DNA from: Octopus vulgaris | Lineage: Eukaryota | Length of the DNA stretch: 64,000 bases | Assembly (NCBI GenBank): GCA_951406725.2 | Contig: OX597820.1 | Coordinates: forward strand, 104,470,001 to 104,534,000 | Direction of reading: 5' to 3' | In this document: piece by piece, positions 1,325 to 57,649 of the stretch | Numbering within the stretch: the stretch's first letter is position 1 | Layout: each line of letters begins with the position of its first letter | The notes under the pieces: model-generated | The model's input: only the letters and a program-made list of their open reading frames with translations | Told to the model about the DNA's origin: nothing | The model's database searches: none | Position numbers and translations under genes: made by a program

Positions 1325-2772
1325 GTTTCTTTATTAGCCACACAGGGCTGCACACAGATAGAACAAATTACAAGGTAGAGCTTTTCTTTTGAATGTTTAA
1401 AAAAAAAAAAAAAAAAAAAAGTAAGGGGGAGTTTCGATCAAAAGGGATCGTAAAAGGAGAGAAGGAGGACAAAAAAGGGGGTTAAAAAAAGGGGAGAGGA
1501 AAAAAAAAAAAAAAAAAATTGATCAATAGGGATCGTTATCACAGAAATGTCAATATGAAGTGTAAAGGGGAGGACAGGTGAGGTTTACCCCGTGGAAAGA
1601 AAAGCCTACGGAAAAGACCACGGTAACCTCGGTCAATGAAGTCACATTTTATATTTCTTTTTTTTTTTTTTTTTTTCAAATAAGCAACTCTCTGTTTTCG
1701 ATTTCTGGGTTCATAGGACTATGCTCAAGGTGGCTTCGTCATTCATACGTGCCATTCTTGCTACATTCACCCATCTTTTTTTAAAACATTCGCTAGACAA
1801 AACTTGCCTCTCTACTCTCACTTTCCTTTTCAAGTGGTACTTGAAGAAGTTGATGAGAGATTGACCAGAGAGGAAAGTGTTTGTCTCCAATCCTTTCAGA
1901 CGCGTCCACCAGATACATTCTTTCGCCATAGCCACAAGGATGATGAAAATAGCTCTTCCTTCCCGTTTGAAGGAAGGAGGCGTGACAATATTGACGATAG
2001 ACTCAGCTGATAAACCGACTCGTCCCACACGTGACAGCAGTTGTTCGACATAAGCCCACAGGTCGGAAATGTTGGACACTGAACGAGTGCGTGCAGAACG
2101 GTTTCGTCGCTCTGACCGCATCTCGGGCAGGTCGGCCCCGTGTTTCTCGAGCCGTGTCTGTAGAGCTTATCCCGGAACGGGTAGCGCTTCTCGGTAGCAC
2201 TGCCAGGCCAGGGATCTCTGGAAGTTGTCCATGGGCCCTGGCCCGAAAGTCGTCCCGAACAGGCGGGTCAGGTACTCCTCGTCGACGTCCAGGTTCGCCC
2301 CGAGCTCGTCGTCGTACCTCCCCTCCACTAAACCCCTATAGAATGCTTTGGTTGTGTTGAAGTCACTTAAGGTCGACCCAGGACGGCAGAGTTGCTTGAG
2401 AGCAACGCGACACTCGCGGTGCCATTCGCCCTTCCTCGGCCTCTTTTTGATCCACGACTGCAGTTCGGTCATGGAGACGAGCTGCGGGAAAGCGTGCCTC
2501 ACAAACGGCGACCACACCTGTTCACCGTCGTCTACATAGAGCCAGAGATGTCGCAGTCTCAGCGCGTGTCTGCGCATCATCAACCACGGCATGCCCAGCC
2601 CTCCTTTTAACGGGTGTTGACAGCAAATGGATCGCCTGACCATCGGGACGCATCCTTTCCACAAGAAGCGAAAGAGGATGCGTTGTAGTTTGGTGATGGT
2701 AGGGTCGGGACAAGGTACGACGGTCAGGCGGTAGTAGATGACGGACGCGATGTACGTGTTCGCCACCTCCGC
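1325..2772 (-). mobile_element. L1/Tx1-like LINE, 5'-truncated copy 1 (ORF2 C-terminus with frameshifts plus 3' UTR)
   Basis: Translation includes FRFLWKG..VRR....P..GGLG, a post-RT motif of L1/Tx1, and KECIWWTR. The region collinear with copy 2's C-x2-C...H...C knuckle is present but frameshifted. The 3' end is ...agccctgtgtggctaataaagaaac followed by (TATC)n. Confidence 0.9.
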
Positions 2773-6592: not shown

Positions 6593-7526
6593 GCGTGGTG
6601 TCATCCTTGTTAGATGATATGTTAGTGTGAAAGTGTGGTAGTGTTGTTAATATGGAGTGAAAGGACGTACCTAAAATATGAGGAACTTAAATCCCCTAAT
6701 GCAAGAATATGCTAATGTACAGTGTTCCTATTAGAGGTGAGATGTCGTGGGCTTTGTAGCTAACTTACGCAGTGACTTACGTGTGTGCTATTGGAGTTAA
6801 AGAGGTCAACAGGGCAACAGGGCATAGATTCATGAACTGGAGAGGGAAACAAAAAATGCTTCATCTTGGATGTGGCAGACGCATGAGAAAGACCAAAGGC
6901 GAAAGCAAATAATAAGTTATCAGAAAGTAGTAAAATATAATAGCTGCAGGATTGAAATGGCAACAGCTGAACCTGGGTTGATACTGTGGTTGATGGATGA
7001 CTGAGAGTTTAAAAAGACACACACGCGCGCACGCACAAACACACACATACACATACACACAGACACACACACACACACACACAGAAAAAAAAAAACACCC
7101 GGATATTCCCTTCTAACATAAAAGCTTCTCGATACAGCTAAAAAAGCGATACTGTCGGAAGGTACCGAAACCGTGGTGTTTTCCTGTCAGCAGCTGATGA
7201 AGGGAGACTGTGTAGAAGGGCAAGCTATAAGTAAAATAATATAGGTGTATGCACTTGTATATGTGTACTTGTATGTAAGTGCCTAACTGTGCATTGATAT
7301 ATGTAGAGGTATATATATTGACGTTGCTCAATGTTATATATTTGTGTCGATGCATAAATTGGTACAACAGTGAATATTTCTTTTCACTCTTCGACGAAAG
7401 GCTCCGTTCTATTCGTTTGGTTTCTCTTCTTTCTCACGGTATAAAATTCCTTCCACGGGTTGAGCTATATATATATTTGTGTTCGTTAATGTATTTATAT
7501 ACTTATGGTAGCGGCGGCGACGGCTC

Positions 7527-9213: not shown

Positions 9214-9620
9214 ACTCTTTTACTCATTTCAGTCATTTGACTGCGGCCATGCTGGAGCACCGCCTTTTAGTCAACCAAATCGACCACAGGACTTATTGTT
9301 TGGAAAACTAGTACTTATCCTATCGGTCTATTTTGCCGAAACGCTAAGTTACGGGGACGTAAACACACCAGCATCAGTTGTCAAGCGATGTTGGGGGGAC
9401 AAACACAGACACACAAACATACTCACTCATATATATATATATATATATACATATATACGACGAGCTTCTTTCAGTTTCCGTCTACCAAATCCACTCACAA
9501 GGCTTTGGTCGGCGCAAGACTATAGTAGAAGACACTCGCCCAAGGTGCCATGCAGTGGGACTGAACCTAGAACCATGTAGTTGGTAAGCAAGCTACTTAC
9601 CACACTGCCACTCCTGCGCC
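9213..9620 (-). mobile_element. SINE family A, full length
   Basis: tRNA-like head, CORE-like ccttgggc-agtgtc segment, internal (TA)n and a gtaaaaga-repeat tail. Confidence 0.92.
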
Positions 9621-9870
9621 TAAGTTGTCCTGGAATGCTTGATGTAGTCAAAACAGAAATATGTACAAACGAAATATACTGAAGAAAATAAAAAGAATTT
9701 TATGTTTGTAAAGTCGCGTAGTAATATATTGAATTCTATTCATCGAACTGCTAAAATACAGATTTCAATAAAATTACTTCGCAACTGGAATCGATGCTGA
9801 TTTCCTTATTTTCAAACAATTTCACCGAACGCGGTGCTTCTGTATAGTCATTGTGTAATTACTAAAGACA

Positions 9871-10283
9871 GGCGCAGGAGTGGTTGTGTAGTAAGTAGCT
9901 TGCTTACGAACCACATGGTTCCGGGTTCAGTCCCACTGCGTGGCACCTTGGGCAAGTGTCTTCTACTATAGCCTTGGACCGACCAAAGCCTTGTGAGTGG
10001 ATTTGGTAGACGGAAACTGAAAGAAGCCCGTCGTATATATGTATATGTATATATATATATATGTATGTGAGTGAGTATGTTTGTGTGTCTGTGTTTGTCC
10101 TCCCAACATCGCTTGGCAACCGATGCTGGCGTGTTTACGTCCCCGTAACTTAGCGGTTCGGCAAAATAGACCGATCGAATAAGTACTAGGCTTCCAAAGA
10201 ATAAGTCCTGGGGTCGATTTGCTCGACAAAAGGCGGTGCTCCAACATGGCCACAGTCAAATGATTGAAAAAAGTAAAAGAGTA
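9871..10283 (+). mobile_element. SINE family A, full length
   Basis: ggcgcaggagtgg...ggttcagtcccactgcgtggcaccttgggcaagtgtc...catggccacagtcaaatga...gtaaaagag. Confidence 0.93.
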
Positions 10284-18958: not shown

Positions 18959-19127
18959 TTACCAGTTATATAATATCGTCAGCTAATCAGCAGTACTATT
19001 CACATTCTAATTTACAATTTTGCATTATTGTAGAAATTATCATCGTAGGTTAGTAAACATGTATCAAATGCATTTGGCGTAAGTGACCGTTGAGTACATC
19101 TGGTTATCAGCCGAGTCGATGCTTAGT

Positions 19128-19715
19128 TTTGTGTATGTGTTCTTTATCTTTGTATATGTATTCCTTATCCTTGTGCATGTGTTCCTTATGTTCGTGTATG
19201 TGTTCCTGATCCTTGTGTATGCGTTCCGTATGTTTTTGTATGTGTTCCTTATCCTTGTGTATATGTTCCTTATTGTGTATGTGTTTTTTATGTTTCTGTG
19301 CATGTGTTCCTTATGCTCGTGTATGTGTTCCTTATGTTTGTGTATGTGTTCCTTATGCTTATGTTTGCACTATTTATCTTTGTGTATGTGTTCTTTATCT
19401 TTGCGCATTTGTTCCTTATCCTTTTGTATGTGTTCCTTATGTTTGTGTATGTGTTCCTTATGCTTCCGTATATTTTTGTATGTGTCCCTTACCCTTGTGT
19501 TAATGTGTTTCTCATCCTTATGTGTATGTGTTCCTTATGTTTGTGTGTATATGTTCCTTATTGTGTATATGTTTCTTACGCTCGTGTATGTTCCTTTTAC
19601 ATATATTTATATTCTTTATATTTGTGAATGTTTTCTTTATATTTGTGTACATGTTTCTTATCTTTGTATATCTGTTCCTTACCTTTGTGTATGTGTTCTT
19701 TATCCCTGTGTATAT
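19128..19715. repeat. Degenerate ~21-bp minisatellite (consensus approx. tgtgtatgtgttccttat(g/c)(t/c)t)
   Basis: Periodic recurrence; the ORFs show a 7-aa period (FVYVFLM / RNTYTRI). Confidence 0.9.
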
Positions 19716-19796
19716 GGTCCTTGTGACAATCACTCTCACAAGCTTCCTTTGGCAAGGAAAGACATGCATTTTGCTTTTTTCTGGTGTCTCCGTTGA

Positions 19797-22609: not shown

Positions 22610-22648
<39 letters not shown>

Positions 22649-45681: not shown

Positions 45682-45682
<1 letters not shown>

Positions 45683-45807
45683 TTTATTTAAAGCGGCAGA
45701 AAATTCAACAAAACCTGTTACTCTAAGTTTCCCGTTGCCGTTCATGAACGGCAACGGGAAACTCAGAGTAACAGGTTTTGTTGAATTTTCTGCTGCTTTA
45801 AATAAAG
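45682..45807. repeat. 126-bp spacer-less palindrome (63-bp arms, 2 mismatches)
   Basis: Centre at ttca|tgaa (45744/45745); arms compared by eye. Confidence 0.95.
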
Positions 45808-45875
45808 CATATTACTCTACCACTGGTATTTGAGTACTCTGTTTCCACCTTGTTTCACATTTATGTGTTTACTCC

Positions 45876-45952
<77 letters not shown>

Positions 45953-46130
45953 GTGTGTGTATGTATGTATGTATGTATACATATATACATATATACATAG
46001 ATAGATATATACATATACAGAATGAAGAGAAAATGGAGAGGTAATTAATATAATTATTAATTAATAACCTTCAAAGGTAATAATTATTAAAATTATAAAT
46101 TAGGGTATCTACGAGATACAATCATGCTGA

Positions 46131-46443
46131 AAATAGCAGCCATGATCTGACTCTAAAACCACCTTAATTTGAACTGGCCATGATGCATACGTGCATATAT
46201 ATGTGGGTATACGTTCGTATATGTAAGTATTCGTATGCTGTGCTTTTATATATATATATTTATGTTTCTCTTCTGTGTGTATTCTACTGACGAGGCAAAG
46301 CATTACTAAATGCTAGGTCAGAAATCCGAGATCTAGAATTATCCGGTAATTTTTTACTAGTTTCATCTTGTCTCTCTGTTTTATCTCCGTGTTGATATAT
46401 GGACAATTAAGGTGGTTTTAGAGTCAGATCATGGCTGCTATTT
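46131..46443 (+). mobile_element. Non-coding element with perfect 39-bp inverted repeats enclosing a hammerhead
   Basis: aaatagcagccatgatctgactctaaaaccaccttaatt (46131-46169) and its reverse complement (46405-46443). Confidence 0.75.
46281..46339 (+). ncRNA. Type I hammerhead ribozyme motif
   Basis: ATTCTA-CTGACGA-GGC(AA)AGCATT(ACTA)AATGCT(AG)GTC(A)-GAAA-TC(CGA)GA-TC^TAGAAT. Predicted cleavage is after C46333. Confidence 0.8.
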
Positions 46444-46543
46444 ACATCAACCCCAGTGTTCAACTGGTCCTTATTTTATCAACCCCGAAAGGATGAAAGG
46501 TAAAGTTAATCCTGTAGTTGCCTAGAAAGCACACGCACGCGCG

Positions 46544-46591
<48 letters not shown>

Positions 46592-47230
46592 ATACATATA
46601 TAATACCCAAAATACCCTGCAGACTGCGACATTCAAATAGAATAGAAATAAAATTTTAAAAGCTATTCTTTCTTTGCTACCCAGTGCTTGGGGTCCCTAC
46701 ATCAATAGGCTATGATGACACAAAGCTTGGCTAAAACATGACTTAATACATTCTAACAGGTGGAGTTAATAAGTTAGGTGTAGCCTGAGCCAATTTTGGT
46801 CGAAACGTATCTAAGTTTAAGAAATTACCTTTGTCTTTATATGTTAACGAGTAGAAAGTGATATTCTACGACCAGCTCAATCGTTCGAATTTTCGGCTTG
46901 TGAGCATTGCCTTGATGCCCCCTGAAGGGGAAAATGTATGTCAAAACCCGGATAAACTGAAAACTGCTATGAGTAAGTAAGGAAACTTCGGCAGATTCTC
47001 AAGACATGATGTAATGAGTAATGCAGGACTTCTAGGTTAGGTTTACAAGTACGTGGGTGAAACAATGGGAAAATTTGGGTGACATTATTTTAAAAACTAA
47101 ATGAACAGTTACCTATGTGTTAGTAATATCGTAATAAATAGCATACATTGTTCTGTACACTTAAACAATAGAAGTTGCTAACATCCTATATTTACCAACA
47201 TTGTATTCATTTAAACACCATCAGATTTCG

Positions 47231-49934: not shown

Positions 49935-50300
49935 TCTCTATATATAAACGGCAAAATGTCTGTGTGTGTATGTGTCCTTTATACAAATCCACAATTTTTC
50001 GGTTAGAGGGCTCGCACTTTCTATGGTCATTCAAAACCGTCCAAGTGTGGTCGTGCACATCTTTACATTTCCCCAGTCACCCTGCAAAGCCATTAAAAAA
50101 CCAGTAGAAGTGACTTTTTTGTGAATTTTCTATCCAAAACCCAATCAAAATGGCCAAAACTTGATATGCAAATTGAATGCCAGCTAGCTGTATGTGATTG
50201 GTCGGAGATTTGGACAGTACTCGCGTGTATGTGCGCACGCACGCAGCTGTATATGCATGCACTAGCACTATGACCCGGCAACGCCGGGTCATAGTGCTAG
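49935..50300 (+). mobile_element. Non-autonomous Helitron
   Basis: A|TCTCTATATATAAAC ... hairpin ... CTAG|T. Confidence 0.88.
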
Positions 50301-50539
50301 TACTTAAATATTAGTCATCAGAAACTTTTTATTGTTGATGTTCAGACACTGATTAGCCCCGATCGAACAGAATAAGGATCAAAGCCAATCCAGCTGTAAC
50401 CATCCTGTTGTTTTAGGTGTTTCAGCGATTATGAACATTTTGATCTTTGTGTGTGTGTGTGTGTGTGTGTATGTGTGTGTGTGTATGTATGTATGTATGT
50501 ATGTATGTATATGTAGGCACTCTTTCGTTTTGACCCAAG

Positions 50540-56205: not shown

Positions 56206-56597
56206 GATGGACACATTGGATAATGTAGTCAGAGATGGGGGAGAGATCCCCTTCATTCAGGACTCCAGGCTAACTTGTTGCTAAATAAAGCAACAATAAC
56301 AATAATTGTAGTGGCGTTTTCTTACGTAAGTACTAGTCCAGCTAAAGCAGCCACAGCGAGATAAGTTGCTTCTTTGTTATTACTCCTCCACATTGCATGT
56401 CATTTTTTTCATTGGCTTTGTGTTGACATGACTAAATATAGACTGTCATTTCAAATAATAATTTCCTGAGGATATATTTGAAAATTACGGACATTGACCC
56501 TGCAATAGATATTTTTAAAAAGATAATCGGATTGTTGTTTTCCAATCGAACATTTGATTACATGTGGATGTGAAATGAGTGAATCAATACAGAATCG

Positions 56598-57400
56598 GGA
56601 TCTTTTCCTTTTGATCGGCACTTTGTAACATAATTTCTAGATAACTAAAAAGTTTTAAACTTCGTATATTGGTAGAATGTGTTTATAAAACATCTTTTTC
56701 TCTTGGCTTTATTGAGAAAATTCTATAGTTTGTAAGATATTTCGTCTGAAATTACTTGCATTTCGGCAATTTTAACCAATCACTAGCGTCCATTTAGGTA
56801 AATAACATTCTGTACCGTATGAATATGTCCCTCCTTTAAGAAACAGATTGGGTTTATTTACATTTGTGAAGAAAAAAGATACCCTTCCCCCACCCCTAAC
56901 CCTAACTAACCCTAAATCTAAAATAGATTGAAATGCAATAGATCGATACTAGGGTTATAATTATAGGTGACAATTTCATTCGACACCGTTACGGAAAATG
57001 GGATTTTTTTCTAGCAGTGTCAAATGAAAATGTCACCCATAATTATGGCCCTAGTATCGTTCTATTGCATTTCAGTCTATTTTAGTTTTAGGGTTAGTTA
57101 GGGGTTGGGGAAGGGTATCTTTTTTTCTTCATAAATGTAAATAAACCCAATCTGTTTCTTAAAGGAGGAACATATTCATTATGCACAGAATGTTATTTAC
57201 CTAAATGGACGCTAGTGATTGGTTAAAATTGCCGAAATGCAAGTAATTTCAGACGAAATATCTTACAAACTATAGAATTTTGTCAATAAAGCCAAGAGAA
57301 AATGATGTTTTATAAACACATTCTACTAGTATACGAAGTTTAAAACTTTTTAGTTACCTAGAAATTATGTTACAAAGTGCCGTTCAAAAGGAAAAGATCC
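56598..57400. mobile_element. Palindromic head-to-head dimer of the TTAGGG MITE with a perfect 8-bp TSD
   Basis: Arms of about 400 bp; cagaatcg at 56590-56597 and 57401-57408. Confidence 0.93.
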
Positions 57401-57649
57401 CAGAATCGTGGGGGTAGTAGAGGTGGTTGCCAATACCTATCAGAAAGCATCTTTCGTAAGAGTAAAATGAAAGGCAATCCTCTATTTATAATCTCAAATT
57501 GAAAGTGGAAAATTAACGAACGAAAATTAACATTGGCATTGTTACCTTGGAAACATTGAAATTTTGACCTAAAAGCGTGTTGCAGAATCGTAATCAACAT
57601 ATGAAGGTGTGTGTCCAGGTGGTTAGGGTATTGCACTCACGATCGCAAG

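Follow-up and report, generated by a model that had tools for sequence, protein, structure and literature searches.

The hammerhead-bearing repeat at positions 46063 to 46443 of the window (the whole 64,000-nucleotide stretch of Octopus vulgaris DNA analysed here) is probably a worn, truncated copy of a many-copy hammerhead family, a retrozyme-like unit inserted by Penelope-type enzymes. The window is microsatellite-rich, non-coding DNA of animal type, with about 37% GC. Judged from its letters, the segment from 46281 to 46339 is a real type I hammerhead motif, for which self-cleavage is a prediction. The parts of the motif, all on the plus strand, are as follows.

46273 to 46346, plus strand: type I hammerhead including its closing stem, predicted by folding
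46281 to 46339, plus strand: minimal type I hammerhead, read from the sequence and matched by a descriptor
46273-75 with 46344-46, plus strand: closing stem beyond loop 1, from folding
46276-80 with 46340-43, plus strand: predicted internal loop 1, from folding
46281-86 with 46334-39, plus strand: helix I, 6 bp (ATTCTA/TAGAAT), from the sequence
46287-93, plus strand: core CTGACGA, from the sequence
46294-96 with 46317-19, plus strand: helix II (GGC/GTC), from the sequence
46299-304 with 46309-14, plus strand: distal part of stem II (AGCATT/AATGCT), from the sequence
46300-04 with 46309-13, plus strand: distal 5-bp hairpin, from the sequence and folding
46320, plus strand: extra A between C11.1 and G12 (an N11 insertion), common to the whole family
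46321-24, plus strand: GAAA, from the sequence
46324-32, plus strand: helix III region (ATC 46324-26 with GAT 46330-32, loop CGA)
Ending at C46333, plus strand: cleavage triplet A-U-C, from the sequence
46333 to 46334, plus strand: predicted cut site, 3' of C46333 (in hammerhead numbering, U16.1 is 46332 and H17 is 46333)
46287-91 with 46317-21, plus strand: rival 5-bp helix covering both catalytic strands, a predicted pairing

The CUGANGA, GAAA and NUH elements are all present in type I order together with three helices, both by eye and by descriptor, and every hammerhead part that an earlier note on this DNA had listed was found in the sequence. That note took the extra A as the sole deviation, which understates the case: stem II of this copy is also broken by an internal loop, and the rival helix wins in folding. 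The G10.1-C11.1 pair does not directly adjoin G12 in this copy or in the family, A46320 intervening. A register in which G46294.A46320 closes helix II was considered and rejected; it offers 1 standard pair against 3, and the variants found at 46295/46318 fit the three-pair register.

The segment from 46063 to 46443 as a whole is, on the evidence of contig alignments, one many-copy family. Part of 46030-46445 is contained in 20 of the 24 public contig runs listed, and in four runs with four organism codes 2636, 2028, 1391 and 848 contigs aligned to 46030-46470. Summed from loose ends, the family is at least about 380 bases long. Compared with the family majority (the letter carried by more than half of the depth in runs X1 and X2), this copy differs at 16 of 381 places, or about 4%, and 5 of the 16 differences lie within the ribozyme and its closing stem. 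By this measure the copy is not pristine. The majority letters are A at 46314 (97-98%), A at 46316 (99%), G at 46329 (97-98%) and A at 46345 (99%), and 46305 also differs; at 46314 and 46316, at most 50 of 8195 of X1 depth could match this copy, which is about one contig's depth. Both the A46299-T46314 pair and the A of the stem III loop are accordingly departures of this copy from the family design. In that design helix II is interrupted by an A-rich 3x3 internal loop, the closing stem beyond loop 1 is of Watson-Crick type, and helix III is near-palindromic, with 4 bp on either side of one central base. The closing pair 46274-46345 is U.G in this copy and U-A in 99% of the depth. Among the sites changed in this copy are thus 46329, in the palindrome, and 46316, probably the A of the loop contact and here G; the suggestion that this site is the best candidate for an active ribozyme does not hold with five changes in ribozyme and closing stem.

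Variation among copies fits the proposed helices I and II. Pair 46295-46318 occurs as G.U, as G-C, which in four runs has 11-17% of the depth, and as A-U, which is rare; pair 46285-46335 as U-A or U.G (9-13%); and pair 46294-46319 as G-C or G.U (4-5%). A few per cent of the depth has lost the third helix II pair (46317 G>T 2.7%, 46296 C>T <1%, with loose ends at 46313). It should be noted that these shares describe a biased subset of contigs, because depth falls where the changes of this copy cluster. A46320 is family-wide, with no indel or other letter listed there at a 1% threshold (361 X1 and 376 X2 contigs), and no indel is listed anywhere in 46262-46404 at the same threshold, an unlisted variant being no proof of absence, as two earlier differences near 46376-46383 do not appear in a second listing. 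Conservation of the core among copies, on which the earlier note had let its claim depend, stood in one respect, in that no change is listed at the 14 core places; the contrast with the other places, where changes are listed at 8 of 45, is weak (p = 0.10).

The arrangement of the insertion was read from contig cover and from the loose ends of aligned contigs, as follows.

46063 to 46169, minus strand: left arm, an inverted, 5'-truncated copy of the family's 3' part, from contig depth beginning at about 46063 and loose ends
46131 to 46169, minus strand: left 39-bp repeat, the part of the left arm still partnered in the forward copy
46166 to 46169: head-to-head junction, AATT being assignable to either copy, from the sequence set against loose ends before 46184
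46170 to 46443, plus strand: forward family copy, truncated at both ends, continuously covered by family contigs
46405 to 46443, plus strand: right 39-bp repeat, the last remaining bases of the forward copy
46442 to 46506: 65-base internal piece of a different repeat, replacing the forward copy's 3' end, from blastn

Segments 46131-46169 and 46405-46443 are, as the earlier note had observed, perfect inverted repeats, their 39 bp being exactly reverse-complementary and the match extending no further outward. Contig cover begins near 46063, not at 46131, and the loose ends before 46062/46063 show one common sequence in all four runs; the left arm lacks about 22-25 terminal bases that are present in other copies. 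Behind 46167 the loose ends (27, 21 and 14 contigs) match, in reverse complement, about 46372-46404 as it reads in the family, and behind 46443 family contigs continue with the reverse complement of 46113-46130 (run X5, 6 contigs). Taken with the loose ends before 46184, those behind 46443 indicate that the family extends in both directions beyond the forward copy. Since family contigs run past all ends of the 39-bp arms, 46063-46169 is an inverted piece of the forward copy's own family, and the arms are, by these alignments, the overlap of an inverted and a forward copy and not the ends of an element. Their perfection was previously taken as the mark of a young insertion, a reading that is not supported for an inverted-duplication overlap in a copy about 4% away from its majority; insertion of the retroelement probably produced the flanking inverted repeats as a side effect. 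The AATT at 46166 to 46169 may represent microhomology at the junction. Among the 15 joints listed, with 39 further ones outside the listing, the left arm is joined to the forward copy at other points in 9, each of the 9 being represented by one contig per run and 6 having at least 30 letters on the shorter side. The repeat piece at 46442-46506, which we take to be SINE-like, matches about ten other sites in the window at 77-86% by blastn, in both orientations and between 16237 and 37537; those copies are longer on both sides, and two bases (46442-43) are shared by the piece and the hammerhead element.

For Penelope-like elements (PLEs), Craig et al. 2021 describe a neighbouring copy that is inverted and truncated at its 5' end, together with an extension on one side only (PMC8557442). 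To judge from its sequence, the inverted/forward arrangement at the octopus locus is this known Penelope-type insertion layout: in both, an adjacent inverted 5'-truncated copy forms the inverted repeats, with the extension at one end only. It differs in that here, so far as observed, the unit carries no coding sequence and the forward copy has lost its 3' end. The same likeness, in inverted truncated arm and one-sided terminal extension, favours a second explanation, in which an autonomous Penelope-like element with the same ribozyme and layout has the repeat as its 3' end (pseudo-LTR). Depth also climbs toward the family 3' end, as that explanation would have it: in X1 it is about 40,000 at 46287-96, 131,000-148,000 at 46342-61 and about 500,000 at 46090-46119, where summed contig depth is not to be equated with copy number. 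Also to be recorded in this region are the segment 46090-46135, which draws about 10 times the contig depth of the ribozyme part, and loose ends at 46119 that point to a second subfamily with the same 3' end.

Published PLE hammerheads permit a closer comparison. In Cervera and de la Pena 2014 (PMC4209133), PLE pseudo-LTR hammerheads share with the octopus motif the type I order, a palindromic helix III and U-rich 5' and AU-rich 3' flanks, the agreement of the flanks with the PLE consensus being a further point for the pseudo-LTR explanation. The same paper reports PLE minimal hammerheads with an extra base between A9 and G10.1, a helix I of 4-5 bp and a helix II of 7-8 bp. None of these three features is found in our motif. 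The family is without the extra base at 9/10.1 and has a longer helix I (6 bp), a broken helix II and a longer palindrome (4+4 bp), and, unlike the pseudo-LTR hammerheads, no linked ORF was found for it. No match to RVT_1 or GIY-YIG, and more generally no host gene and no PLE domain, was found by Pfam in 229 filtered segments of the window (those of at least 55 aa and not of low complexity); only zf-RVT was matched, 44 kb away. This last match (1899-2267, minus strand, E 2.7e-5, below the curated cut-off) is likely a LINE remnant. We regard the pseudo-LTR explanation as less probable than the retrozyme-like unit, and as the most probable of the alternatives considered.

Among known elements, the non-LTR retrozymes described by Cervera and de la Pena 2020 (PMC7229834), for which PLEs have been proposed as mobilisers in metazoans, are close to the family in several respects. 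Animal retrozymes typically carry canonical type I motifs, and the family shares with them type I order, a 6-bp helix I, loop 1/loop 2 signatures, a dimer-type helix III and low GC. Mussel retrozyme units of 350-390 in that paper are also close to the family's length. The family differs from them in its head-to-head insertion, in the extra A before GAAA, and in helix II, which is made up of 3 bp, a 3x3 internal loop and a 5-bp hairpin in place of 4 bp with an apical loop. The majority has the 6-bp helix I and loop 1/loop 2 signature of a canonical type I hammerhead, and this copy is without the loop-2 A46316. In sum of features, the majority appears closer to the canonical retrozyme type I than to the PLE minimal motifs. 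In the majority, loop 1 starts with U46340 and ends with U46280, and the internal loop has A46297 as its first base and A46316 as its last; by analogy, loop 1 may contact A46316. In the analogous case studied by Dufour et al. 2009, the Chrysanthemum chlorotic mottle viroid (-) hammerhead, an internal loop replaces loop 2, and loss of the 3' A of loop 2 almost abolished cleavage in one viroid ribozyme (PMC2632901). The family majority likewise has an internal loop for loop 2 and follows the purine...A rule; the differences are that the known case is a plant viroid RNA and that here the loop contact is conjectural and this copy has G for A. Non-circularly permuted hammerheads (Eckert et al. 2023, PMC10085705), whose strands are in shuffled order, have the core in common with our motif, which is in ordinary type I strand order from 46287 to 46333, with no GAAA-then-CTGANGA site nearby. 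Elsewhere in the window, GAAAC followed after nine bases by CTGAAGA (8694-8675, minus strand) presents the core strands in reverse order, and further CTGANGA sites in repeat-like context, none of which satisfies the type I descriptor, are located at 7194 (plus), 13244 (minus), 15358 (plus) and 23317 (plus).

The extra A is not new in kind. In PMC4209133 the Fig. S7 descriptor makes room before GAAA for 'a possible extra N11', and among the 56 Fig. S3 entries one, which by row order appears to be the Cotesia congregata bracovirus PLE, reads AGAAA; this example belongs to a PLE hammerhead alignment and so counts for the pseudo-LTR explanation. No assay of an N11 variant was seen in the sections consulted. 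Perreault et al. describe other core insertions, not N11, some of which are tolerated, and rejected candidates with mispairs adjoining the core (PMC3088659, in the part available). We found no paper on the family or on an assayed 11.1/12 insertion; the work of Lunse, Weinberg and Breaker on PLE hammerhead variants cleaving as dimers, known to us as cited in PMC6765202, may cover such variants.

We used computed folding to examine how the extra A might act. The rival helix has a pair probability of 0.95 in this copy, 0.98 in the majority and 0.00 with C at 46318; A46320 takes part in one of its pairs, and 46318C abolishes it. The rival fold is predicted to lie 2-5 kcal/mol below the hammerhead fold in both this copy and the majority. 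Because the computed energies omit core and Mg2+ contacts and the gap is small, a lock of the catalytic strands by the rival helix is a prediction of the model. In dimers, the helix III self-duplex is worth -9.9 kcal/mol in the majority against -3.3 in this copy, the majority having the weak helix III with dimer-favouring palindromic loop that in this copy is broken. When two copies were co-folded without constraints, the majority exchanged helices I and III between the strands and the 46318C variant formed a complete double hammerhead. This copy did neither, the double hammerhead being at -16.5 and two monomers at -23.6, and with longer flanks the probability of helix I was 0.00 in three contexts. 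These predictions suggest that the family ribozyme would cut as a pair and that this copy, which is very probably less active than the majority, likely no longer cuts. The monomer construct 46270-46350 that the earlier note had proposed for transcription is predicted to misfold, so that its failure to cleave would be poor evidence on the family.

Two readings of the family-wide A follow. We advance tentatively, as something that would be more a surprise than an expectation, that the A is functional: together with the G.U pair of helix II it would complete the 5-bp lock on both catalytic strands and make the ribozyme off by default and dimer-gated, and the 46318C copies (11-17%) would be the unlocked form that spread alongside. 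Conversely, the extra A and the rival helix could mean that the majority never cut. A ribozyme dead already in the master copy through the extra A, the element having spread as a passenger of Penelope enzymes, would agree with the presence of both features in the majority, with the rejection of mispaired candidates by Perreault et al., and with the finding that contig ends are not piled at the cut site. We nevertheless regard it as unlikely, in that the majority core, both loops, the closing stem and the palindrome are all intact and common variants preserve or improve pairs; moreover, the tolerated core insertions (PMC3088659) and the N11 of the published descriptor (PMC4209133) count against it.

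No piling of ends at the cut site was found in the contig alignments, and among 11 left-arm-to-forward joints listed none begins at 46334. A threefold rise in depth over 46327-46356 was considered as a sign of copies starting at the cut and rejected; it is gradual, tracks the cluster of changes in this copy and has no pile-up of ends. Metazoan retrozymes are further marked by short head-to-tail tandem units, the feature that defines them, and by abundant circular RNA. Tandem units were not seen for the family, which counts against a retrozyme-like unit: the window holds a single copy and each loose end gives 30 letters, though one noisy X5 consensus hints at a 3'-to-5' join. Runs X16 and X13, whose RNA nature is a guess, yielded 34 and 3 contigs. 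A single one of these extends across the cut site, differing at 18 letters, and we count these contigs neither for nor against expression.

It is very improbable that the element is a young DNA transposon of MITE type, bounded by 39-bp terminal repeats and carrying an active monomeric hammerhead, which is the reading implied by the earlier note. The arms are indeed perfect, and none of the 16 differences falls in their 78 bases, for which the chance is 1.5-3.5% at the copy's mean divergence; given such low odds, some of the divergence of this copy may predate insertion. Yet family sequence passes both outer and both inner arm ends, junctions vary between loci, no target duplication of 2-12 bp was found at the three boundaries tested, and the copy has 16 differences from the majority.

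Chance likeness to a hammerhead within an ordinary repeat is the least probable of these explanations, since the motif was absent from all 150 simulated windows and since palindrome, closing stem and loop-2 A are each independently better in the majority. In favour of chance, Rfam has no match, the motif folded alone does not outdo shuffled sequences (z -0.56 and -1.69) and core conservation reached only p = 0.10. In detail, a type I descriptor allowing the extra A, with an extra base permitted on either side of helix II, had the 46281-46339 site as its sole match in the window (both strands, four stringencies), and no second copy of the motif was found there. In 150 simulated 64-kb sequences there were 0 matches at a helix I of at least 5 bp and 2 at one of at least 4 bp, with a third-order Markov model and a descriptor composed after the motif had been seen. 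A core-like pattern gave 35 matches in viral contigs and 53 in metagenome contigs, and all 88 were set aside as chance, helix I being at most 3 bp in every one. Scoring against hammerhead models, which had been recommended for this site, lent it no help, with no Rfam hammerhead match at the gathering score across the window or at E<=10 within 45700-46900.

If the family is a retrozyme-like unit inserted by Penelope-type enzymes, the following sequence of events may be proposed. A two-unit transcript would fold into a double hammerhead via the near-palindromic helix III and cut after C46333; the released unit would be circularised or directly used as template, by comparison with known retrozymes; and a Penelope-type reverse transcriptase and endonuclease would insert it. 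Insertion would often leave a truncated forward copy head to head with an inverted truncated copy, a layout that was seen at multiple loci. The present locus would then have diverged from the majority and lost its 3' end to the other repeat, changes that the alignments display, with a 39-bp overlap resembling terminal repeats as the result.

Several further features of the window were recorded. A 126-base near-perfect fold-back (45682-45807, 96.8% self-complementary) lies between TA tracts 250 bases to the left of the element and may be another head-to-head stub or a MITE. Long inverted pairs at 56597-57401 (300 bases, 93%) and 9266-10231 (190-223 bases, 89-92%) are possibly more head-to-head insertions. 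At about 50261-50301 there is a perfect 19-bp hairpin with a 3-base loop, with a similar start near 22648, which we presume to be reminiscent of Helitron-type ends, and 19080-19766 is a minisatellite with a 21-base unit.

These observations add one more family to a known class of element and show that perfect inverted repeats round such motifs can be by-products of insertion and not marks of youth. In its design the family brings together a fixed base before GAAA, an internal loop for loop 2, a long palindrome for dimer pairing, and a blocking helix that is predicted to form in most copies and to be absent from one natural variant. PMC7229834 leaves open by what means the circles of animal retrozymes escape self-cleavage, and if the family cuts it would offer a direct test of this. 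Should the lock reading be true, the family would provide an active N11-insertion hammerhead fixed family-wide, with a natural pair of locked and unlocked variants.
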